Of a stretch of 18,055 nt of DNA, positions 5,376-18,005 are shown one piece after another. The notes under the pieces were generated by a model. That model did not search any database. It was not told where the DNA came from and saw only the letters and a list, made by a program, of their open reading frames with translations. How positions within the stretch are numbered: the first letter of the stretch is position 1; each line of letters opens with the position of its first letter. Source of the stretch: a virus; the UHGV virus genome UHGV-0106651. One strand, written 5' to 3'. The position numbers were made by a program, and so were the translations under genes.

Positions 5376-5548
5376 TGTCAGGAGTCCTGAATAGTGATTA
5401 GAGGAGTCACATGTCGGCATCAGTTTCCCGACGATGCGCATCCTCCGCCATCAGTCCCGGATGGCTTATCACTGACACAACAGCACCTTAGCGAATCGCG
5501 GGGCGCGACTCAGTAGCCTTGCCGTGTATTCATCACGGCGAGGTATTC
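5376..5548. promoter_or_regulatory. Divergent late-promoter region between O (minus) and P (plus)
   Basis: 173-bp intergenic spacer between divergently transcribed capsid and packaging operons, the position of the P_O and P_P late promoters in P2. Exact promoter and activator sites were not resolved by eye. Confidence 0.5.
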
Positions 5549-7321
5549 ATGACCATCACCACAGACACCACTCTTTTACACGACCCGCGTCGTCAGGCGG
5601 CGCTGCTGTACTGGCAGGGGTTTTCCGTGCCGCAGATTGCCGCCATGTTGCAGATGAAACGCCCGACGGTGCAGAGCTGGAAACAGCGCGACGGCTGGGA
5701 CAGCGTTGCTCCCATCAGCCGTGTCGAAATGAGTCTGGAAGCGCGGCTGACCCAGCTCATCATAAAACCGCAGAAAACAGGCGGTGACTTCAAGGAAATT
5801 GACCTGCTCGGACGCCAGATTGAACGACTGGCACGGGTAAACCGCTACAACCAGACCGGCAACGAGGCAGACCTTAATCCGAACATCGCTAACCGCAACA
5901 AAGGCGGGCGGCGCAAACCGAAAAAGAATTTTTTCAGCGACGAGGCTATCGAAAAGCTGGAGCAGATTTTCTTTGAGCAGTCTTTCGAATATCAGTTGCA
6001 CTGGTATCGCGCCGGGCTTGAGCACCGCATCCGCGATATCCTGAAATCCCGCCAGATTGGCGCGACGTTTTATTTTTCCCGCGAGGCGCTGCTGCGCGCC
6101 CTGAAAACCGGTCATAACCAGATTTTTCTGTCGGCCAGTAAAACGCAGGCGTATGTGTTCCGCGAATACATCATCGCCTTTGCCCGGCTGGTTGACGTTG
6201 ACCTGACCGGTGACCCGATTGTCCTGGGCAATAACGGCGCAAAACTGATTTTTCTCGGCACCAACTCCAACACCGCACAGAGCCATAACGGCGACCTGTA
6301 CGTCGACGAGATTTTCTGGATCCCGAATTTTCAGGTACTGCGTAAGGTGGCATCAGGTATGGCCTCACAGAGCCACCTGCGCTCGACCTATTTCTCCACC
6401 CCGTCCACGCTGGCGCACGACGCCTACCCGTTCTGGTCGGGTGAACTGTTTAACCGGGGACGCGCCAGCGCCGCCGAACGCGTGGAAATCGACGTCAGTC
6501 ATAACGCCCTTGCCGGTGGGCTTCTCTGTGCGGACGGCCAGTGGCGACAGATTGTCACCATTGAGGACGCCCTGAAAGGTGGCTGCACGCTGTTCGACAT
6601 TGAGCAGCTCAAACGCGAAAACAGCGCCGACGATTTTAAAAACCTGTTCATGTGTGAATTTGTTGACGACAAGGCGTCGGTGTTCCCGTTCGAGGAGCTG
6701 CAACGCTGCATGGTCGACACGCTGGAAGAATGGGAAGACTATGCACCCTTTGCCGCCAATCCGTTCGGCTCCCGCCCGGTATGGATTGGTTACGACCCGT
6801 CACACCGTGGCGACAGCGCCGGATGCGTGGTACTGGCACCGCCGGTGGTGGCCGGTGGCAAATTCAGAATACTTGAGCGTCACCAGTGGAAAGGCATGGA
6901 CTTTGCCACTCAGGCTGAATCCATCCGCAAACTCACCGAAAAATATAACGTTGAATACATCGGTATTGATGCCACCGGCCTCGGTGTCGGCGTGTTCCAG
7001 CTCGTGCGCTCGTTCTATCCCGCCGCGCGCGACATCCGCTACACGCCGGAAATGAAAACCGCAATGGTGCTCAAGGCAAAAGACGTTATCCGCCGTGGCT
7101 GTCTGGAATATGACGTCAGCGCCACCGACATCACCAGCTCGTTTATGGCTATCCGCAAGACCATGACCAGCAGTGGACGCAGCGCCACCTATGAGGCCAG
7201 CCGCAGCGAGGAAGCCAGCCACGCCGACCTCGCCTGGGCGACCATGCACGCCCTGTTAAATGAGCCACTCACCGCCGGTATCAGCACCCCGCTGACATCC
7301 ACCATTCTGGAGTTTTACTGA
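5549..7321 (+). CDS. P: Terminase large (ATPase) subunit gpP, 590 aa
   Basis: Start at ATG 5549 (MTITTDTTLL) with GAGGT ribosome-binding site 5 nt upstream. 590 aa; stop overlaps the Q start (TGATG). Confidence 0.9.
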   Translation: MTITTDTTLLHDPRRQAALLYWQGFSVPQIAAMLQMKRPTVQSWKQRDGWDSVAPISRVEMSLEARLTQLIIKPQKTGGDFKEIDLLGRQIERLARVNRYNQTGNEADLNPNIANRNKGGRRKPKKNFFSDEAIEKLEQIFFEQSFEYQLHWYRAGLEHRIRDILKSRQIGATFYFSREALLRALKTGHNQIFLSASKTQAYVFREYIIAFARLVDVDLTGDPIVLGNNGAKLIFLGTNSNTAQSHNGDLYVDEIFWIPNFQVLRKVASGMASQSHLRSTYFSTPSTLAHDAYPFWSGELFNRGRASAAERVEIDVSHNALAGGLLCADGQWRQIVTIEDALKGGCTLFDIEQLKRENSADDFKNLFMCEFVDDKASVFPFEELQRCMVDTLEEWEDYAPFAANPFGSRPVWIGYDPSHRGDSAGCVVLAPPVVAGGKFRILERHQWKGMDFATQAESIRKLTEKYNVEYIGIDATGLGVGVFQLVRSFYPAARDIRYTPEMKTAMVLKAKDVIRRGCLEYDVSATDITSSFMAIRKTMTSSGRSATYEASRSEEASHADLAWATMHALLNEPLTAGISTPLTSTILEFY

Positions 7322-8349
7322 TGAGCAAGAAAAAAGGGAAAACACCGCAACCTGCGGCAAAAACAATGACCGCCAGCACCCCGAAAATGGAGGCATTCAC
7401 CTTTGGTGAGCCGGTGCCGGTACTCGACCGCCGTGACATTCTGGATTACGTCGAATGCATCAGTAACGGCAGATGGTATGAGCCGCCGGTCAGCTTTACC
7501 GGGCTGGCAAAAAGCCTGCGTGCTGCCGTGCATCACAGCTCCCCGATTTACGTCAAACGTAATATTCTGGCTTCAACGTTTATCCCGCACCCGTGGCTTT
7601 CCCAGCAGGATTTCAGCCGCTTTGTGCTGGATTTTCTGGTGTTCGGTAATGCGTTTCTGGAAAAGCGTTACAGCACCACCGGTAAGGTCATCAGACTGGA
7701 AACCTCACCGGCAAAATATACCCGTCGTGGCGTGGAGGAGGATGTTTACTGGTGGGTGCCGTCCTTCAACGAGCCGACACCTTTTACGCCCGGCTCCGTG
7801 TTTCACCTGCTGGAGCCCGATATTAATCAGGAGCTGTACGGCCTGCCGGAATATCTCAGCGCCCTCAACTCTGCCTGGCTGAATGAGTCGGCCACGCTGT
7901 TCCGCCGCAAGTATTACGAAAACGGCGCTCATGCCGGATACATCATGTACGTCACTGATGCCGTGCAGGATCGCAACGATATCGAAATGCTCCGCGAAAA
8001 CATGGTGAAGTCGAAAGGCCGCAATAACTTTAAAAATCTGTTTCTCTATGCCCCACAGGGGAAAGCCGACGGCATTAAAATTATCCCGCTCAGTGAAGTG
8101 GCGACGAAGGACGATTTTTTTAATATCAAAAAAGCCAGCGCCGCTGACCTGCTGGACGCGCACCGCATCCCCTTTCAGTTGATGGGTGGCAAGCCGGAGA
8201 ACGTCGGGTCGCTGGGTGATATTGAGAAAGTGGCAAAGGTCTTTGTCCGCAATGAACTTATCCCGTTACAGGACAGGATCCGCGAGATAAACGGCTGGCT
8301 TAGCACAGAGGTTATTCAATTCAAAAATTACTCTTTAGACACCAATTAG
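7321..8349 (+). CDS. Q: Portal protein gpQ, 342 aa
   Basis: 342-aa product immediately downstream of P on the same strand, ending at the edge of the AT-rich cargo, as expected for the cos-proximal portal gene. Confidence 0.9.
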   Translation: MSKKKGKTPQPAAKTMTASTPKMEAFTFGEPVPVLDRRDILDYVECISNGRWYEPPVSFTGLAKSLRAAVHHSSPIYVKRNILASTFIPHPWLSQQDFSRFVLDFLVFGNAFLEKRYSTTGKVIRLETSPAKYTRRGVEEDVYWWVPSFNEPTPFTPGSVFHLLEPDINQELYGLPEYLSALNSAWLNESATLFRRKYYENGAHAGYIMYVTDAVQDRNDIEMLRENMVKSKGRNNFKNLFLYAPQGKADGIKIIPLSEVATKDDFFNIKKASAADLLDAHRIPFQLMGGKPENVGSLGDIEKVAKVFVRNELIPLQDRIREINGWLSTEVIQFKNYSLDTN

Positions 8350-8408: not shown

Positions 8409-8981
8409 CTATTTTTTCATATTGTATATAACTTCGCAAACACCCGTCAGTGTTAATCGGCTATAATTTTCCAATGTAAACACAGGATAATCATAAAAAA
8501 CCTCAGGTTCTGGCAATGGCGAACGAACAGTTGTTCTTTTATTTGACTGCATCCTCCTCGACAATTTACTTATTACACCAATGTAACCCACCTTTCTTGA
8601 CAAATGCCCATGTAATTTCAATACAGAATATAGCCACTTACAAAAATGAATGCCAGTAACTATCTGTTTAGCGGCACGATTTGAGTTATAAGACTTAAGA
8701 TCTATTACGATAAAATAATCCATATCCCTGTACGACGTAACAAAAATCCCATCACAAACAGAGGATAGCCCAGTTAAGGTTGAAGATTTTAAAAATTTCC
8801 AAACTGGTTTAGATACACTAGTAGAATCTAACGAAAATCCATATACACCATTTCCATTCACCAATAATTTCTTATTAGCAGAACTGGGATTATCTTCGCA
8901 TATGACCCAACATGCCTGCTCCCGTGTTAATTGAAATGCAGGATCGATGCAATTCTGTATTACACTGATAATATTACTCAT
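8409..8981 (-). CDS. Hypothetical 190-aa protein, second gene of the cargo operon; possible small TOPRIM-like nuclease partner (speculative)
   Basis: ATG at 8979-8981 (reverse complement) overlaps the upstream ATPase stop by 8 nt (ATGAGTAA), indicating translational coupling. AT-rich. Contains WVICEDNPS and RDMDYFIVID, loosely resembling the TOPRIM glutamate and DxD motifs; no confident domain call. Confidence 0.6.
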   Translation of the reverse strand: MSNIISVIQNCIDPAFQLTREQACWVICEDNPSSANKKLLVNGNGVYGFSLDSTSVSKPVWKFLKSSTLTGLSSVCDGIFVTSYRDMDYFIVIDLKSYNSNRAAKQIVTGIHFCKWLYSVLKLHGHLSRKVGYIGVISKLSRRMQSNKRTTVRSPLPEPEVFYDYPVFTLENYSRLTLTGVCEVIYNMKK

Positions 8982-10410
8982 CTGCCCCCTCACTATCAGA
9001 GGAGTTTTCTACTAACGAATAATATATTTCATCATTATCATCATTAATGGCGTTAATTACCTCATCAAAAGTTACAGCATGAATTCCTTCATTTGATTTT
9101 TGCATTTCATTTACAGAACCGCCATCAAATAAATAAGCAGCAACCATGTTAGAATCTAAAATTGAGTCGATGCTAATTCCTTGCTTACGCATTACAGTGT
9201 TTCGTTTTTCAATCATATTTTCAGAAACGCCATGAAGCATCATTAAGCTATTGATTTCCTTGACAAAATAATCACTGTGAGTACTAACAACAACCCGAAT
9301 ACCAGAGTTAACTAATTTTGCCAAAAATCTTGCAATTACTCGCTGATTTGACGGGTGTAAATTTAACTCTGGTTCGTCAATCATTAGAATGTCACCAACT
9401 TTTGCTTGATGTTCTAAATAAAACCATAAACCAAACAAACTCTTAACAGTAGATGACGATAAATGAAGATCAATTTTTTTGCTTGCAGGTGTTTTACCTT
9501 TCTTATATGTAGAAAAGTAAATTTGCCCTTCAGGATCAACCGAATATTTCCCTGATATTATTTTTTTTACTTCTTCTGCCAACTTATGAAATTGGCCATT
9601 TTTATTTTTTCTATTTACCTTAATCTCATTTAGCCAGTCTATATAATTTGCTATAGGAGCAGAATATCTTGACTTCATTACATCCATTAACAGTGAATTA
9701 AGATCGAATTGCTCTTTTGAAGCATGATGCAATAATGTAGTTCTTCTAGAGCTTAATTCATTAAAAAAAAGATGCAATCCATTCCTTTCAGCAGGAATTA
9801 AGAAGGCCGGACTTTCATCATGCTCGATTTTTAATAACTGACTTAGAGTCAAATTTATAAACCCGTCTACTCTTGGAAAAACAGAATCTAGCAGCGTCAT
9901 TTGTATGATATTACTGTTTTCATCTTTGGATAATAGCATTACTTCTTTTTTGCCAGTTCCTATGACGAGGCTAACATCCAGTTTTTTTTCATAAACACTT
10001 GATGTTAATGACTCTTCATCAATAACCCAGTCAAATGTTGAATTAGAAAAAATCTCATTATCATTAGTACTAAACACATCCCTCAGCATTAAAGATGAGC
10101 TTTTATTAAACTCTTTTTTAATTAACGTGAAGTTATTTTTTATCCAGTCAATCACATCTAACTCAAACTTGCCATTTTCACGAAGAGTTTTGGCAAAGTT
10201 TGCTACTTGTGGCAATTTTAAAGATGGTGATGGCATATTTAGGAAGCCATATAACCCATACATAACCCATGTTTTACCAGTGTTATTCTTCCCACATAAA
10301 AGAGTTAAAGGTTTTGCATTAATCTCTCCTGCAGAGATACACCCAATATTTTTAAATGAAAACTTCCATGATGCTAATTTACTTACATTAATTTCACTTT
10401 GCTTTTTCAT
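8974..10410 (-). CDS. ABC-type ATPase of the AAA_21/AAA_15 (OLD/SMC-like) kind, 478 aa; first gene of the cargo operon
   Basis: Walker A LLCGKNNTGKT near the N-terminus, signature-like HLSSSTVKSL, Walker B ILMIDEPELNLHP, H-loop VVVSTHSD. Strong ribosome-binding site AAGGAAG 5 nt before the ATG. Roughly one-third GC by eye, against a visibly GC-richer phage backbone. Confidence 0.8.
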   Translation of the reverse strand: MKKQSEINVSKLASWKFSFKNIGCISAGEINAKPLTLLCGKNNTGKTWVMYGLYGFLNMPSPSLKLPQVANFAKTLRENGKFELDVIDWIKNNFTLIKKEFNKSSSLMLRDVFSTNDNEIFSNSTFDWVIDEESLTSSVYEKKLDVSLVIGTGKKEVMLLSKDENSNIIQMTLLDSVFPRVDGFINLTLSQLLKIEHDESPAFLIPAERNGLHLFFNELSSRRTTLLHHASKEQFDLNSLLMDVMKSRYSAPIANYIDWLNEIKVNRKNKNGQFHKLAEEVKKIISGKYSVDPEGQIYFSTYKKGKTPASKKIDLHLSSSTVKSLFGLWFYLEHQAKVGDILMIDEPELNLHPSNQRVIARFLAKLVNSGIRVVVSTHSDYFVKEINSLMMLHGVSENMIEKRNTVMRKQGISIDSILDSNMVAAYLFDGGSVNEMQKSNEGIHAVTFDEVINAINDDNDEIYYSLVENSSDSEGADE

Positions 10411-10670: not shown

Positions 10671-10689
10671 GTGCTTTCCCCGCCTCGCC
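10671..10689. other. cos: cos site: the 19-nt cohesive-end sequence of P2/186-type phages (present here as the reverse complement)
   Basis: GTGCTTTCCCCGCCTCGCC at 10671-10689 is the exact reverse complement of GGCGAGGCGGGGAAAGCAC, remembered as the P2 cohesive end. It lies between A and Q as expected for a prophage. Confidence 0.8.
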
Positions 10690-10811
10690 CGCCCGCTTCG
10701 CGGGTCACATTTAATGCAGTTGCATAAAGGCGTCAAAACCACACCGGTACTGGCAACAAGTGACCATAAAAACGGCTTTTGGCACATGCAAAACAATGCA
10801 CCTAATGCACG

Positions 10812-10841
10812 CACACAAAAACGGGGAAAGTCGCTTCCCCC
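10812..10841 (-). terminator. Rho-independent terminator downstream of the 174-aa gene
   Basis: On the minus strand, a GGGGAA/TTCCCC stem with a short loop is followed by GTTTTTGTGTG, about 12 nt after the stop of the 10852..11376 ORF. Confidence 0.6.
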
Positions 10842-10851
10842 ACAAACATTA

Positions 10852-11376
10852 TCAACGCACCGGAATGTAAGATTCAAGGTCTCTGATTACGGCTTGTTTC
10901 AGTGCTTCAGATACAGCCTCAAGTTCTGGCAATGCTGGCTTTTCACTTAAGTTCGTTTCGAATTCCCCGCTTCCTATTACTAGCGTAAAGCCATTTCCAT
11001 CACGTAGCAGTTTCAAAGGAATAATCACGTTTAACTTAGGATGAGCAACCGGTGACTTATCCACTGTAAGGCCAATAAAAAATGACAAAATCCCATCTGC
11101 ATCAGGCAACAGATCGTGTAACTGAACTTTAGATTTTTCACCATCTTTAATTGCAGCGACAAAAACATAATTTTCAGTGGGGTTTTGCCCTGGATAGCCC
11201 CAGCAAGTTTGCTCAAGCTCAAGCGACCCCTCAAAGTTTTTCGCAATCAGCCCAACAATATTTTGTAAACGCTCTTTTTCCTCTCTCTGTAACCGAACGA
11301 TTTCAATATACTTATCTCTTATAGTCTGAAAAGTAATCACTTTAATCTCCTGAAACGGTTTACACAGAAACAGCAT
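10852..11376 (-). CDS. Hypothetical protein, 174 aa; orphan cargo gene on the replication-gene side of cos
   Basis: Uninterrupted ORF with a purine-rich stretch (AGGGGG) before the ATG and its own terminator downstream. No recognisable motifs. GC appears intermediate between the backbone and the ATPase operon. Confidence 0.6.
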   Translation of the reverse strand: MLFLCKPFQEIKVITFQTIRDKYIEIVRLQREEKERLQNIVGLIAKNFEGSLELEQTCWGYPGQNPTENYVFVAAIKDGEKSKVQLHDLLPDADGILSFFIGLTVDKSPVAHPKLNVIIPLKLLRDGNGFTLVIGSGEFETNLSEKPALPELEAVSEALKQAVIRDLESYIPVR

Positions 11377-11439
11377 TTAACCCCCTGATAATATTTCTTT
11401 CAATAATTTTCCTAACACCAAACTGCGCTCGTGGTTCAA

Positions 11440-11478
11440 CCCCGCCAGCCCTGAAAACAAGTTTCACGACTGGCGGGG
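11440..11478 (-). terminator. GC-rich stem-loop just downstream of the 68-aa ORF; possible terminator of the A-containing operon
   Basis: CCCCGCCAG (11440-11448) pairs with CTGGCGGGG (11470-11478); the loop contains a nested TGAAA/TTTCA stem. No clean U-tract follows, so terminator function is uncertain. Confidence 0.4.
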
Positions 11479-11482
11479 TTCT

Positions 11483-11689
11483 CTATCGTCTGCGTGGTGC
11501 TGGCATAACTCTGGACTGACTGATATAGCTAAACCGCCCGTAATTATCCCGGACTATTTCGGCACACCCGACTAGCTCATCGGGCGTCAGATTTTCGTTG
11601 ACCATAATCTGCTGTAGACGCTGAACAATGGCCATCAGCTTGGCGCTTTTGGCGTTATGCTGCGGTATCTCGCCTGGTATTCTGTGCAT
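11483..11689 (-). CDS. Hypothetical small protein, 68 aa, translationally coupled to the upstream DUF3850-like gene
   Basis: ATG at 11687-11689 (reverse complement) overlaps the upstream TAA stop as TAATG. The track ORF 11483..11701 has an earlier in-frame ATG; the coupled start is preferred. Confidence 0.45.
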   Translation of the reverse strand: MHRIPGEIPQHNAKSAKLMAIVQRLQQIMVNENLTPDELVGCAEIVRDNYGRFSYISQSRVMPAPRRR

Positions 11690-12141
11690 TATCCAAGCCA
11701 CCCGTTTTGCTGTGCACGCTCCACCTGTTCATCTGAATAGTTCCATGCTCCATCCGTGGCAACCATTGCCCCGCCAGACATCCCCGTCTCTGGTTCATAC
11801 ATAACAGCAAGGCCGAGCTGATGCATAATTTCATGATTAATTCTGAATATCAGGCCACGCTCACTAAGTTCTTTCCAGTTCACAATCTCATATGCACCTG
11901 TATTAAGCAGCTCAATACTTAGCAAGACATAATCTTCCAGCCAGTCTGACAGGTCAGTAACATCTGTTATCCGGGCTTCAACCTTTCGCCCCGTATACAC
12001 ACCCTGCACCCATTCACGCAAAATCAACGTGTCCCGGCGCTCATAATTACGGTCATTTTTCCGAAACTCTGCACGTTTATGTCCTTCCAGCACAAGGTCG
12101 AAATATTTTGCGTGAAGCTTTACCTCGTGAATTTTTGCCAT
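11689..12141 (-). CDS. DUF3850-like (ASCH/PUA-like fold) protein with a C-terminal HExxH-containing extension, 150 aa
   Basis: Start MAKIHEVKLHAKYFDLVLEGHKRAEFRKNDRNYERRDTLILREW resembles the remembered DUF3850 consensus. C-terminal part contains INHEIMHQLG. Its ATG overlaps the A stop (TAATG). Confidence 0.6.
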   Translation of the reverse strand: MAKIHEVKLHAKYFDLVLEGHKRAEFRKNDRNYERRDTLILREWVQGVYTGRKVEARITDVTDLSDWLEDYVLLSIELLNTGAYEIVNWKELSERGLIFRINHEIMHQLGLAVMYEPETGMSGGAMVATDGAWNYSDEQVERAQQNGWLG

Positions 12142-14426
12142 TATGTCCACTCCATTACTGTTGAGAATCCCAGCCACTCATCAGCGACCGGATACGTGAA
12201 TTTTTTCCCGTCGTAATTTACGGTCGCGCCACGCACCAGCGCCTCAAGCTCCCATCGCTGCGGCCTGATACCGTTCTGAGCAAGGTCAACGCGGATACGG
12301 GTGATTTGCAATCGTTCAGACCTGGTCAGTCTGGCAGATGGTGCAATTTCATGCGGTTTTAACGGGATTCCGTTTCTTTGCTGACGATTTGGTGTTCTCA
12401 GTCCGTGTTTTAATGCGCCCCTGAGCGCCATCACGACCTCCGGGTCACTCCATTCGATAACACCGTCATCTACCAGATTAAGCACTGCTGCGGCGTGCTC
12501 AGAAGGTGTGGGAGCCGGTAACGAAGTATCACCACCGGTGAGCTTTCCACAGTTATTGACAGGACTCCGAGGCGCGGCGATGCCGCTTTTTAAAGTCAAA
12601 GGCTCCACGACCGGCACTTTCGGCACAATGCGCCAGTCCGTCGTTCTGGTGATATGAATATGACGCGCGCCGAGATGCGGCGCGTAAATGCCGACCACTC
12701 TCTCGACCTCTTCCTCGTACTCGTTAACGTCATCCGACGAGCTACGGGCAACCCTGACAGTCTGACAATCGCGCGGGACATTTGCCCCACCCTGCGCGCT
12801 GATATACAGCGCAAAATCGCCACTGTCTGCGGCAGCGCGTGCAGCCTCGACGCGTTCGTCAAACTCATCAGCAATGCTGACACCGCGGGGCAATTTGCGT
12901 AGTTCACGGTAAGCCCCCATTGTCGGCAGGCCAACAGTTTTAAATTGTGGGATACGCCACGTTGACGCCCATGCGGTAACAGCCGCAGCAGTATCTTTCA
13001 GTGGCCTGCCGGTATCGTTATCGAGCTGACCATCCAGTGCATAGCCATCGATGTTTTTTGAGATGTATTTCGCGATATACCCCGCAGCACCGCCCCGATT
13101 AAGATGTTTTGCCTGAAAACGGTTTCGCGCGGCTCCTCTTTCGTCGCCATCCTCTTTAAGCGCATAGCGACGCATGATTTCGATAATCTGGTTACGCTGG
13201 CGTGGATTACAAAAAAGCATCATATGCCAGTGCGGCGTTCCGTCGTGGTGTGGCTCGACGACTCGCAAACCGTAGACCTGTAAATCATTATCCTTGAATG
13301 CCGTGCGCATCAGGCTCCAGATGCGGCAGAGATAACGCTGCGCATCCTTTGGATTAAATGCCTCATCGTTCCAGCCGTGATTAAGCTGGACGGTTTTACT
13401 TTCGCCTTTTCTGACCTGACGTGTCGGGTGATACTTTGACGGCGCGGTCAGCGTGATAAACATCCCCACATCACCCTCTGCGGCAGCGTAACGCTCAATA
13501 CCGGCGATGGTGTTCATCAGCTCCATCCGGCGAATTTCTGGATTAGAAATACTGCCCATCACCTTACTGATAAGGTCGATGCGCTCGCCGGTTTCCCTGT
13601 TTTCAAGGTCACACGATTTAAGAAATTCCAGATTTGCCTGGCGGCGCGCACGCACATCACGAATGGCATGTTTACTGGCATAAGGAGAACGGTCTTTATT
13701 GACCTCCCCGACAGCAATCAGTAACGCCTCATGCCAGCGCATACGCTGGCCTTTAAGCTGATGAGTCCACCATTCATCGTTAAACAGACGGGCAATGGCA
13801 GAATATGCCTGCCTCGTGGTCATCTGCCCTTTACGGTATTTTTTCAAGTAGAGCGGGGAAATATTGAAAGCACGTGCAGCGCCAGCAACATGACCATACA
13901 GGTGAGCCTGCGCCTCATCCGTAAACAGCGATTCTTTTTCGCCATGGGCATCCACCCAGGCATCGCAGAGTTCCTCATACATCATGAAAAGCTGCGATGA
14001 GATACGGGCGGCAAATTTTTTCAGCTCCTTGTCATTCATTCCCGGCAGGCGCGCATAGTGGTCACGCTCTGCCAGAAACAGTAACGACGCGTCGGTGTTC
14101 ATTTCATGGCGCTGATTCACGCGCTCAATGCGCGGCCATAAACGACGCTGAAAAGTGGCTGTGAGGAAATAAAACCCGTGCACCGGGCTTTTATTGCGCC
14201 GGATGTAGTCATAGCGTGAAGTAAACAGCGAGCGCAAAAAGTAAGGCAGGCGATTAATCGTGGATAAAACACCTTGCACCTGACGCATCTCGTCACGTGT
14301 AAGGGGTCTTTCGCGCCCGACGGCCTCGCGTGGCGCGTTCCATGCATAAGCACCGGTAAACGTCTCACCGGTGCCTGCGGCAAATGCTGACGGAGGGACA
14401 AAACGCCCGGAGGCTTTAACGGCCAT
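12141..14426 (-). CDS. A: Replication initiation protein gpA (rolling-circle HUH endonuclease), 761 aa
   Basis: Start at the ATG giving MAVKASGRFVPPSAFAAGTGE, 761 aa as in P2 gpA. HUH motif TPHWHMMLF and tyrosine-pair region YIAKYISK are present. Confidence 0.9.
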   Translation of the reverse strand: MAVKASGRFVPPSAFAAGTGETFTGAYAWNAPREAVGRERPLTRDEMRQVQGVLSTINRLPYFLRSLFTSRYDYIRRNKSPVHGFYFLTATFQRRLWPRIERVNQRHEMNTDASLLFLAERDHYARLPGMNDKELKKFAARISSQLFMMYEELCDAWVDAHGEKESLFTDEAQAHLYGHVAGAARAFNISPLYLKKYRKGQMTTRQAYSAIARLFNDEWWTHQLKGQRMRWHEALLIAVGEVNKDRSPYASKHAIRDVRARRQANLEFLKSCDLENRETGERIDLISKVMGSISNPEIRRMELMNTIAGIERYAAAEGDVGMFITLTAPSKYHPTRQVRKGESKTVQLNHGWNDEAFNPKDAQRYLCRIWSLMRTAFKDNDLQVYGLRVVEPHHDGTPHWHMMLFCNPRQRNQIIEIMRRYALKEDGDERGAARNRFQAKHLNRGGAAGYIAKYISKNIDGYALDGQLDNDTGRPLKDTAAAVTAWASTWRIPQFKTVGLPTMGAYRELRKLPRGVSIADEFDERVEAARAAADSGDFALYISAQGGANVPRDCQTVRVARSSSDDVNEYEEEVERVVGIYAPHLGARHIHITRTTDWRIVPKVPVVEPLTLKSGIAAPRSPVNNCGKLTGGDTSLPAPTPSEHAAAVLNLVDDGVIEWSDPEVVMALRGALKHGLRTPNRQQRNGIPLKPHEIAPSARLTRSERLQITRIRVDLAQNGIRPQRWELEALVRGATVNYDGKKFTYPVADEWLGFSTVMEWT

Positions 14427-14691
14427 ATGAGCCAAAAGCCTCTGAACAACGCTTGCTGAGTTGCTCAACCTGCGCGTTTAAATCAGCAAAAGACTTTGCG
14501 CTTCCGGTCAGAATATCGTGATGCATCAGGCCGGAAACGAGCTGGCTTAATTTCGGGTAATAACCAACCACCGCCAGCCATTCCTGACCGGCGTTTTTAC
14601 CGCTTTCAGCTCTCTTTTTCTCGTGGAGAATAAACTGAAAGCTGTCACAGGTAACGACATAACGTTCGCCAATTTCTATACGAATACTCAT
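14416..14691 (-). CDS. Small early protein, 91 aa, immediately upstream of A (resembles the small ORFs between B and A in P2)
   Basis: ORF overlapping the A start by 11 nt, in the same orientation and operon. Confidence 0.6.
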   Translation of the reverse strand: MSIRIEIGERYVVTCDSFQFILHEKKRAESGKNAGQEWLAVVGYYPKLSQLVSGLMHHDILTGSAKSFADLNAQVEQLSKRCSEAFGSYGR

Positions 14692-16455: not shown

Positions 16456-16576
16456 CTGCTACGATTCTCCCTTAGTGCTTCTAATGGCTCCTAATGGCTA
16501 ATTATTGCCTAAAAGGATAACTCCAGAAGCACAACATTTCACACTATCAGCAAGAAATTACGCAATCGGAGTAATT
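16456..16576. promoter_or_regulatory. Immunity switch region: divergent early (cox-ward) and repressor (C-ward) promoters with tandem direct repeats as candidate operators
   Basis: Intergenic region between divergent cox and C. Direct repeat CTAATGGCT at 16481-16489 and 16491-16499. Confidence 0.55.
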
Positions 16577-16876
16577 ATGTCAATAGACGTTTCGGAGAAG
16601 TTGAAGCTAATCCGTGAATCTGAAAGGTTAAACCGTAAAGAATTCAGTGAATTAACTGGTGTAGCCTACAGCTCACTTTCGAGCTATGAGAGCCGGTCAA
16701 AAAACGCTGGAGTTGAAGCCATAATGAAGGTCTTACAACATCCTAGATTTACTAAATATACTTTGTGGTTCATGACTGATCAGGTAGCTCCAGAAGCCGG
16801 GCAAATTGCGCCCGCTCTCGCACACTTTGGGCAAAACGAAACAACGTCGCCCCACTCCGGTCAAAAGACTGGTTAA
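16577..16876 (+). CDS. C: Immunity repressor C, 99 aa
   Basis: Start at ATG 16577 (MSIDVSEKLKLIRESERLNRKEF) with GGAG ribosome-binding site. The C-terminal half (FTKYTLWFMTDQVAPEAGQIAPALAHFGQNETTSPHSGQKTG) matches remembered P2 C; the N-terminal DNA-binding half differs. Confidence 0.85.
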   Translation: MSIDVSEKLKLIRESERLNRKEFSELTGVAYSSLSSYESRSKNAGVEAIMKVLQHPRFTKYTLWFMTDQVAPEAGQIAPALAHFGQNETTSPHSGQKTG

Positions 16877-16991
16877 CAATTTATCGTGAATATATTCATC
16901 ACAAGTGCCTACTATTGGTGGCTAAATTTCAGCCACCACGAAAAAAGCTATTAGTAGTAGCAAAAAAAAGTACCACTCGGAGGGTTTTCTG

Positions 16992-18005
16992 ATGGCAATC
17001 AAAAAACTCGATGATGGTCGATATGAAGTGGACATCCGCCCTACTGGACGTAACGGAAAACGCATCCGTAGGAAGTTTGATAAGAAAAGCGAAGCTGTCG
17101 CTTTCGAAAAATACACGTTGTACAACCACCACAATAAAGAATGGCTATCAAAACCAACAGACAAACGACGTCTGTCGGAACTGACACAGATCTGGTGGGA
17201 TTTAAAGGGTAAACACGAAGAGCATGGGAAATCTAATCTTGGAAAAATTGAAATCTTCACAAAAATAACGAATGACCCATGCGCATTTCAAATCACGAAA
17301 TCCCTTATCAGCCAGTACTGCGCCACCCGAAGAAGTCAGGGTATTAAACCTTCGAGTATCAATCGTGATTTAACATGTATTAGCGGCATGTTTACAGCCC
17401 TGATTGAAGCGGAGTTATTCTTTGGTGAGCACCCTATCAGAGGGACAAAGAGGCTTAAGGAGGAAAAACCAGAAACAGGCTATCTCACACAGGAAGAAAT
17501 TGCCTTACTGCTTGCAGCACTTGACGGCGACAATAAAAAGATTGCGATTCTTTGCCTGAGTACAGGAGCACGTTGGGGAGAAGCAGCTCGTTTGAAAGCA
17601 GAAAATATCATCCATAACCGCGTCACGTTTGTTAAAACGAAAACAAACAAACCACGCACCGTCCCGATCTCAGAGGCTGTTGCCAAAATGATCGCGGATA
17701 ACAAACGAGGTTTTTTATTCCCTGATGCTGATTACCCTCGCTTCAGACGAACAATGAAAGCAATAAAACCGGATTTGCCAATGGGGCAAGCCACACATGC
17801 ACTAAGGCACAGCTTTGCCACTCATTTCATGATTAATGGAGGAAGTATTATCACGCTACAACGGATACTAGGTCACACGCGGATTGAGCAAACTATGGTT
17901 TACGCTCATTTTGCGCCAGAGTACCTTCAGGACGCCATTTCTCTTAATCCGCTAAGAGGTGGTACTGAGGCCGAGAGTGTCCACACAGTGTCCACAGTAG
18001 AGTAA
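16992..18005 (+). CDS. int: Tyrosine integrase, 337 aa
   Basis: 337 aa with the tyrosine-recombinase catalytic region (HALRHSFATH ... LGHTRIEQTMVYAHF). Same length and position as P2 Int. Confidence 0.9.
   Translation: MAIKKLDDGRYEVDIRPTGRNGKRIRRKFDKKSEAVAFEKYTLYNHHNKEWLSKPTDKRRLSELTQIWWDLKGKHEEHGKSNLGKIEIFTKITNDPCAFQITKSLISQYCATRRSQGIKPSSINRDLTCISGMFTALIEAELFFGEHPIRGTKRLKEEKPETGYLTQEEIALLLAALDGDNKKIAILCLSTGARWGEAARLKAENIIHNRVTFVKTKTNKPRTVPISEAVAKMIADNKRGFLFPDADYPRFRRTMKAIKPDLPMGQATHALRHSFATHFMINGGSIITLQRILGHTRIEQTMVYAHFAPEYLQDAISLNPLRGGTEAESVHTVSTVE

Follow-up and report, generated by a model that had tools for sequence, protein, structure and literature searches.

A rare, mobile single-gene cassette in the cos-proximal defence hotspot of a P2-like Escherichia coli prophage

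The moron concept of Hendrix and Juhala, exemplified in phages such as HK97 and lambda, designates a promoter-gene-terminator unit that is lodged between backbone genes. In phage P2, old and tin are carried on the strand opposite to gene A and are transcribed into an mRNA that runs from near cos towards A. The OLD nucleases, to which P2 old belongs, combine an ABC-type ATPase domain with a Toprim domain. Tin is reportedly non-enzymatic and poisons the single-stranded DNA-binding protein of T-even phages. Tip and Aqs1 of Pseudomonas are soluble, non-enzymatic proteins that are expressed from the prophage and block superinfection by binding to host proteins.

In P2-like phages, the cos-proximal region between gpA and gpQ is a reservoir, or hotspot, of anti-phage systems (Rousset et al. 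2022, PMC9122126). According to published estimates, only a minority of the P2 hotspot genes of unknown function, 15–32%, are predicted to be defensive (PMC13586616). The orphan gene presented here is one among hundreds of uncharacterised genes in this already described hotspot. Its arrangement was already included in the supplementary locus table of Rousset et al. 2022, where the gene appears as 'hypothetical' (PMC9122126). We describe it as a real, rare and mobile cassette, the start codon of which has been corrected. It can reasonably be regarded as an anti-phage candidate.

The window, i.e. the whole stretch of 18,055 nucleotides that was analysed (UHGV virus genome UHGV-0106651), is a P2-like E. 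coli prophage, the orientation of which is reversed relative to the standard P2 map. The int and repressor (C) region is found at 16505–18005 on the plus strand. It is followed leftwards on the minus strand by the early operon with gene A (12141–14468), a DUF3850/ASCH orf91-like gene (11689–12177), a 72-aa ORF (11483–11701) located upstream of the orphan gene, and the orphan gene with its terminator (10812–11376). The P2-type cos lies 122 nt past the T-run of the terminator of the orphan cassette, and its 19-nt cohesive end sequence GGCGAGGCGGGGAAAGCAC (10671–10689, minus strand) matches exactly that of P2. Beyond cos are a two-gene PD-T4-4 defence system (8409–10410, minus strand), the Q portal and P terminase genes (5519–8349, plus strand), and, to the left of P and Q, the capsid genes (minus strand). 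Gene order and the cos match therefore place the orphan gene between gpA and gpQ, adjacent to cos.

The PD-T4-4 genes were recognised by a PADLOC scan of the window (PD-T4-4_A, E = 1.6e-111, 478 aa; PD-T4-4_B, E = 5e-12, 194 aa). As PD-T4-4 is located on the Q side of cos, between cos and Q, and the orphan gene on the opposite, A side, the prophage has distinct slots for cargo to either side of cos. The GC content is 0.39–0.44 in the orphan gene, 0.50–0.59 in gene A and the P and Q genes, and about 0.33 in PD-T4-4, the latter to be compared with about 0.52 for the backbone. These three differing levels indicate three separate compositional modules, namely the orphan gene, the backbone and PD-T4-4.

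Gene model and expression signals

A prior sequence-only reading of the window had reported a stand-alone ORF of 174 codons on the minus strand. This ORF is present at 10852–11376, its longest form starting at ATG 11376. A variant that is 87% identical occurs in another prophage (L005), and comparison of the two yielded a dN/dS of 0.17, with 62 nucleotide differences distributed 17/8/37 over the first, second and third codon positions. The remaining two reading frames of the ORF contain 12 and 19 stops. On this comparison of variants, the ORF is a real gene under purifying selection.

A chance ORF, or a decaying remnant without function, might be suspected as Pfam, NCBIfam and PADLOC returned no match, as the one matching family, phrog_5091, is not annotated, and as one copy of the family (P0003) is truncated or frameshifted. 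This explanation is extremely improbable. It is effectively refuted by the dN/dS value and by the confident predicted structure of the product, and it is also at odds with the concentration of the differences at third codon positions and with the existence of full-length homologues, down to about 20–25% identity, in other genera.

The start codon had to be revised. The sequence-only reading had paired ATG 11376 with a purine-rich AGGGGG acting as a ribosome-binding site. The AGGGGG is present, at 11386–11381, 4 nt before the ATG, but the roles attributed to it and to the ATG are probably wrong. As judged from sequence comparisons, translation most likely begins at GTG 11340. The coding sequence in this likeliest form spans 10852–11340 on the minus strand, from GTG 11340 to the TGA at 10852–10854, and encodes 162 aa. 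A Shine-Dalgarno sequence, AGGAG (11347–11351, minus strand), is found 6 nt upstream of the GTG. Both the match to the phrog_5091 profile and the distant homologues begin at the position of residue 13 of the 174-aa form. In the lambdoid copies, the upstream frame contains stop codons, and the TTAAAT motif presented below is kept but without an ATG at this place. Residues 1–8 of the AlphaFold model have a pLDDT below 50, and the PGAP annotation in one genome gives a protein of 162 aa. Furthermore, ATG 11376 overlaps a −10-like hexamer and the AGGGGG lies inside the spacer of the promoter-like motif. A transcript from the candidate promoter would begin downstream of this ATG. The combination of ATG 11376 and AGGGGG as start codon and ribosome-binding site was rejected, GTG 11340 being favoured by the evidence from homologues, profile, motif and model. 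In the L019 subfamily, the promoter-like site is placed differently, and a longer form of the protein could be translated there.

A Rho-independent terminator follows directly after the stop codon, at 10811–10843 on the minus strand, and consists of a stem-loop and then TTTTTGTGTG. It corresponds to the GGGGAA/TTCCCC stem with a T-run that had been noticed from the letters of the window. The stem GGGGAAGCGACTTTCCCC occupies 10840–10823 and is followed by GTTTTTGTGT; a 10-pair version at 10843–10821 was delimited by a terminator scan. RNA folding gave a free energy of −18.8 kcal/mol with z = −2.2. The terminator is kept in the copies of the cassette that are 97–100% identical, and a terminator directly after the stop codon is also found with the homologues of L019 and L012. 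No terminator was found after the gene in the L005 copy. L019 has a further terminator upstream of the promoter-like site, and an upstream terminator is also present in L023, an organisation typical of morons.

The GC-rich stem-loop that had been described as separating the A operon from the gene is present as well, at 11438–11480 on the minus strand. It lies where the early (A) operon ends, between the 72-aa ORF and the orphan gene, and marks the backbone side of the left limit of the cargo (about 11412). This hairpin is strong (−33.6 kcal/mol, z = −5.9 by RNA folding), and none of 200 shuffled sequences was as stable. It was considered as a part of the cassette and rejected, since it is a conserved backbone element shared with other P2-like phages. 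On the minus strand, the hairpin has a short U-run only; on the plus strand, it has a U-rich tail. In P2, the old-tin transcript would converge on this hairpin. The hairpin may be a bidirectional terminator retained from the P2 arrangement. An Rfam scan of the whole window gave no match.

Upstream of the gene, a promoter-like motif TTGAAA-N17-TTAAAT is found at 11375–11403 on the minus strand, with a −35-like hexamer at 11403–11398 and a −10-like hexamer at 11380–11375. It is preceded by an A-rich stretch GGAAAATTA. The pattern TTGAHM-N17/18-TTAAAT has 1 match in the window, as compared to 0.04 expected by chance. Nine distinct upstream sequences were anchored on the conserved protein start (M/V-I-T/K-F). 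They display TTGAAA, TTGATA or TTGAAC, then 17–18 nt, then TTAAAT. The motif was found exactly once per locus, and always 5' of the gene, in each of 12 loci, namely those among the fetched ones in which an enteric-type homologue and its upstream DNA are present. The carriers are P2-like (the window and the divergent L005), Mu-like (L023) and lambdoid (L024 and L025). In all of them, 34–35 nt separate the motif from the start codon, and the spacer and leader sequences have diverged. We infer from this conservation that TTGAAA-N17-TTAAAT is the cassette's own candidate promoter, with an imperfect −10. A simple sigma-70 scan did not flag the motif because its −10 lacks an A at position 2. A promoter-like motif that moves with its gene is a clean example of hotspot cargo carrying expression signals between unrelated backbones.

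L023 (7860–7915) and L024 (7830–7885) have in common an element of about 60 nt, consisting of GCTGACGGGCTGGYAATA, a hairpin and a T-run, which precedes the promoter-like motif by about 100 nt. This element folds as a terminator in L023 and is degenerate in L024. The mobile unit in the Mu-like and lambdoid carriers may include an upstream insulator terminator.

Boundaries, mobility and relatives of the cassette

When 50,697 phage records were searched by megablast, only the flanks of the cassette were matched. Homology at the nucleotide level with P2, Wphi and Yersinia P2-like phages begins at 11412–11428 and extends outwards, with the hairpin included. On the side of cos, an alignment with P2 cosR indicates that the backbone homology resumes right after the T-run of the terminator. 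Taken together, the flank matches and the cosR alignment delimit a cargo of about 600 bp, at about 10811–11412. Three TGCAT repeats spaced by about 10 nt are found between the terminator and cos, at about 10775–10806 of the window (minus strand), and are common to the cosR flank of P2 (L018). They may belong to the packaging signal. These repeats mark the exact point where the backbone sequence resumes.

The cassette is rare. It was found in 7 of 5,426 complete E. coli genomes. The flanking backbone was matched in 248 of these 5,426 genomes, 241 of which have the flanks only. The cassette is thus missing from about 97% of the E. coli genomes in which the flanking backbone was matched, and it is missing from P2. 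The notion of a stand-alone variable cargo is borne out by the matches restricted to the flanks, by the small fraction of flank-matching genomes that carry the gene and by the position in the gpA–gpQ hotspot.

In four P2-like lineages that have the cassette, four different defence-type modules are adjacent to it. The neighbour is PD-T4-4 in the window. In L003 (1961–3898), L021 (6607–8553) and L022 (7983–9929), it is a 645–648-aa AriA/Old/AbiL-like ABC ATPase located between cos and Q. A HEC-02A/PD-T4-4-like ATPase with a 205-aa protein is found in another P2-like lineage. In L005 (8636–10289), the neighbours are an RmrA-like HTH and M78 peptidase protein (PADLOC RmrA, E = 3.7e-35) and a PIN-domain protein. 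This L005 gene pair, which comes after the homologue, resembles a RosmerTA-type module. In L003, L021 and L022, the cassette is 97% identical, and the Q-side cargo has been exchanged, the A-side cassette having been retained. We considered and dismissed a functional link to PD-T4-4, as the adjoining module differs in every lineage.

The window and L005 are only distantly related in their backbone, with gpA 30% identical and the portal 56% identical, whereas the orphan gene, with about 35 nt upstream of it, is 87% identical. This discrepancy indicates that divergent phages acquired the cassette horizontally, in the same slot. The best explanation for the locus, as read from the sequences, would be a moron-type cassette of about 600 bp that comprises a candidate promoter, a 34-nt leader, a 162-codon gene and its own intrinsic terminator.

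More remote relatives, at 20–48% identity, are always single-domain proteins of 157–182 aa encoded at accessory positions in temperate phages. In a Mu-like phage, the gene is found after GemA/Mor. In an enteric lambdoid phage, it lies between DnaC-like/DUF977 genes and the nin/Q region. In the lambda-like phage L019, it immediately precedes the small terminase subunit and is flanked by terminators on both sides. It is located between NinG/tRNA and the holin in 12 Pseudomonas aeruginosa phages, and at the end of a prophage in Halopseudomonas, to which related marine contigs can be added. No partner gene is conserved across the carrier contexts, and none of the Pseudomonas, Mu-like or lambdoid carriers has a defence module beside the gene. 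In 6 of 7 contexts, the gene points the same way as the lytic operons that flank it, unlike old, tin and fun of P2.

Some of these positions could suggest that the protein assists its carrier in the manner of a chaperone, for instance in packaging at cos, in the timing of lysis or in replication. The gene adjoins cos in the window, the small terminase subunit follows it directly in L019, it adjoins lysis genes in the Pseudomonas and Halopseudomonas phages, and the predicted fold is chaperone-like. Such a helper is nevertheless very improbable, considering that P2 itself and most of the flank-matching E. coli genomes do without the cassette. Other positions of the gene, behind Mor and within the nin region, are remote from packaging and lysis genes, no neighbour is conserved, and the packaging systems of P2, lambda and Mu differ.

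The size of the family was probed with large protein collections. A word-indexed search of 5.8 billion proteins returned 3 matches when queried with the single sequence; with the family profile, it returned 11 clusters at 90% identity. An exhaustive HMMER search of 1.84 billion cluster representatives returned 12 matches (50%-identity clusters), 11 of which are genuine, and no multidomain fusion hinting at a function was found in this search. Its top match, P0004, is a 2,487-aa tandem-repeat protein aligned through 23 short stretches, and was discarded as a repeat-summed artefact. No homologue was found in plasmids by tblastn. Within the sequences thus covered, the family is very small, patchy and confined to phages.

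Predicted protein and candidate functions

The only family matched by the window protein is phrog_5091, with E = 1.7e-13 over residues 13–169 aligned to profile positions 2–157 of 164; this family has no functional annotation. Pfam and NCBIfam gave nothing above noise for the window protein or for 17 family members. PADLOC-DB v2.0.0 gave 0 matches for the window protein and a single stray match at E = 0.01 among the 17 family members. A match to nec1 at E = 0.098 was far below threshold, and no similarity to a known virulence or fitness factor was found. Neither a signal peptide nor a DNA-binding motif was found, and the family scans gave no match to the ATPase or Toprim domains of OLD-type proteins. 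No homology to P2 structural or replication proteins was found for the orphan protein; such a homology would have contradicted the sequence-only reading. Searches of PDB sequences with the protein and two profiles gave no match, and neither the RefSeq accessions nor phrog_5091 led to a mention of the protein in the literature searched.

A transmembrane segment is absent, the maximum 19-residue Kyte-Doolittle mean being 1.1 and the GRAVY −0.07 to −0.13. The orphan protein is therefore not a classical membrane Sie protein. With a pI of about 5.0 and a net charge of about −6, it lacks the extremely acidic surface of DNA mimics such as Ocr, and neither homology nor a close structural likeness to DarA, Acr or other known anti-defence proteins was found.

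An AlphaFold model was obtained with a 17-sequence alignment (mean pLDDT 88.9, pTM 0.81). The predicted fold is globular α/β, with a long helix (residues 16–51), eight antiparallel strands and a C-terminal helix (residues 149–168). In the model, a two-layer sandwich is predicted, with both helices packed on one face of the eight-stranded antiparallel sheet. A Foldseek comparison of the predicted structure, as had been advocated, was run against the PDB and BFVD and retrieved nothing at E ≤ 0.001. In fold comparisons, scores of 7.5 and 6.9 were obtained with the FP domains of PI31 and Fbxo7, respectively, 6.5 with actin-capping protein, 6.1 with P1 DarA and 5.0–5.8 with type III secretion chaperones. 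For the FP domains and the class I type III secretion chaperones, the sequence identity over the aligned regions is 6–14%. The number of strands and the lengths of the helices differ from those of the orphan protein. The resemblance would be a likeness at the level of the fold and not membership.

The conserved columns of the family are L52, Y70, V71, F99, P113 and K114 only. As they contain no plausible catalytic set, the protein is presumed to be a non-enzymatic, probably oligomeric binding protein. Overall, the product would be a soluble, mildly acidic, non-enzymatic protein of about 18 kDa. Given the likeness of its predicted fold to protein-protein interaction modules, it probably acts by stoichiometric binding of a target and not by catalysis.

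The target could belong to the host. A regulator or adaptor that brings about lysogenic conversion, by binding a host protein and thereby altering host physiology, stress response or surface, would be compatible with the moron anatomy and the hotspot position, which fit any prophage-expressed cargo, and with a fold that resembles adaptor and chaperone modules. As the family is present in Escherichia, Pseudomonas and Halopseudomonas, the target would be a widely conserved protein. Host modulation of this kind is considered distinctly unlikely, in view of the negative results for signal peptide, DNA-binding motif and likeness to known virulence or fitness factors, and of the recognised or candidate defence module that adjoins the cassette in the four P2-like lineages examined.

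Alternatively, the target could be part of an immune system. A small acidic inhibitor, made in lytic growth or after induction, could neutralise by binding an immune protein of the host or of a rival prophage. The orphan protein is small, soluble and mildly acidic (pI about 5), without apparent catalytic residues, and its family is patchy, rare and phage-confined, as would suit such an inhibitor. In P2-like, Mu-like and lambdoid carriers, early or late lytic operons run in the same direction as the gene, so that read-through in lytic growth is possible, which would suit counter-defence equally well. In the window, read-through from the early operon is conceivable despite the strong intervening backbone hairpin, which, lying just upstream, should nonetheless limit it. 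The gene's own promoter-like motif, found across unrelated backbones, and its own terminators suggest an expression uncoupled from lytic timing. Moreover, a systematic survey found anti-defence genes in only 28 of 1,511 P2-like phages (PMC13586616). Counter-defence, although the foremost of the rival readings, appears rather unlikely on these grounds.

Our best guess, held with somewhat less than even confidence, is that the orphan protein is a non-enzymatic binding protein for phage exclusion. Judging from its location only, the cassette would be transcribed independently of the lytic programme, also from the repressed prophage. The protein would then protect the lysogen by sequestering or poisoning a component needed by an incoming phage. 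By analogy, this mode of action would resemble the logic of P2 Tin, albeit with an unrelated protein. A wider proposal, possible but doubtful, is that the protein is the founding member of an undescribed family of single-protein, non-enzymatic factors of phage conflict, either anti-phage or anti-defence. This family would have a fold without close viral relative, whether solved or predicted, and would have spread as a promoter-to-terminator cassette among P2-like, Mu-like and lambdoid phages of Enterobacteria and Pseudomonas.

If the protein does protect the lysogen or disarm a defence, it would be a new single-gene, non-enzymatic player in the conflict between phages and bacteria. The cassette would then offer a compact, easily cloned 600-bp unit, with natural variants from three phage types for the identification of the target. 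The immediate value lies in the corrected gene model and in a well-delimited candidate for assay.

Comparison with P2 old/tin, hotspot cargo and morons

The sequence-only reading had assigned the gene to the tin/old slot of P2. The position between gpA/orf91 and cos matches, and tin and the orphan gene are alike in being non-essential variable cargo in the same genome slot. The direction is however opposite, as the orphan gene is on the A strand and is oriented towards cos, and the protein is unrelated to Tin and OLD. No sequence relationship to Tin was detected (hhalign probability of 0.2% over 7 columns), and Tin has 253 aa, as compared to 162 aa for the orphan protein. No match to either domain of the OLD nucleases was found in the orphan protein, which has a length of only 162–174 aa. 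Unlike the old-tin unit of P2, the orphan gene is a single-gene unit with its own terminator. Tip and Aqs1 are smaller than the orphan protein, and their target, the type IV pilus ATPase, is not applicable to E. coli.

The orphan gene shares its location with the hotspot cargo of Rousset et al. 2022 but matches no known defence family, and we did not find it among the systems reported as assayed in that study (PMC9122126). As its neighbours vary, it is not part of any of these systems.

The comparison with morons should be read with the difference that the promoter of the cassette is deduced from comparative conservation and has an imperfect −10, and that expression from the prophage is likewise deduced. 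The traits that the cassette has in common with morons are its own terminator, a GC content unlike that of the backbone, its presence or absence among related phages, and its occurrence in unrelated phage types.
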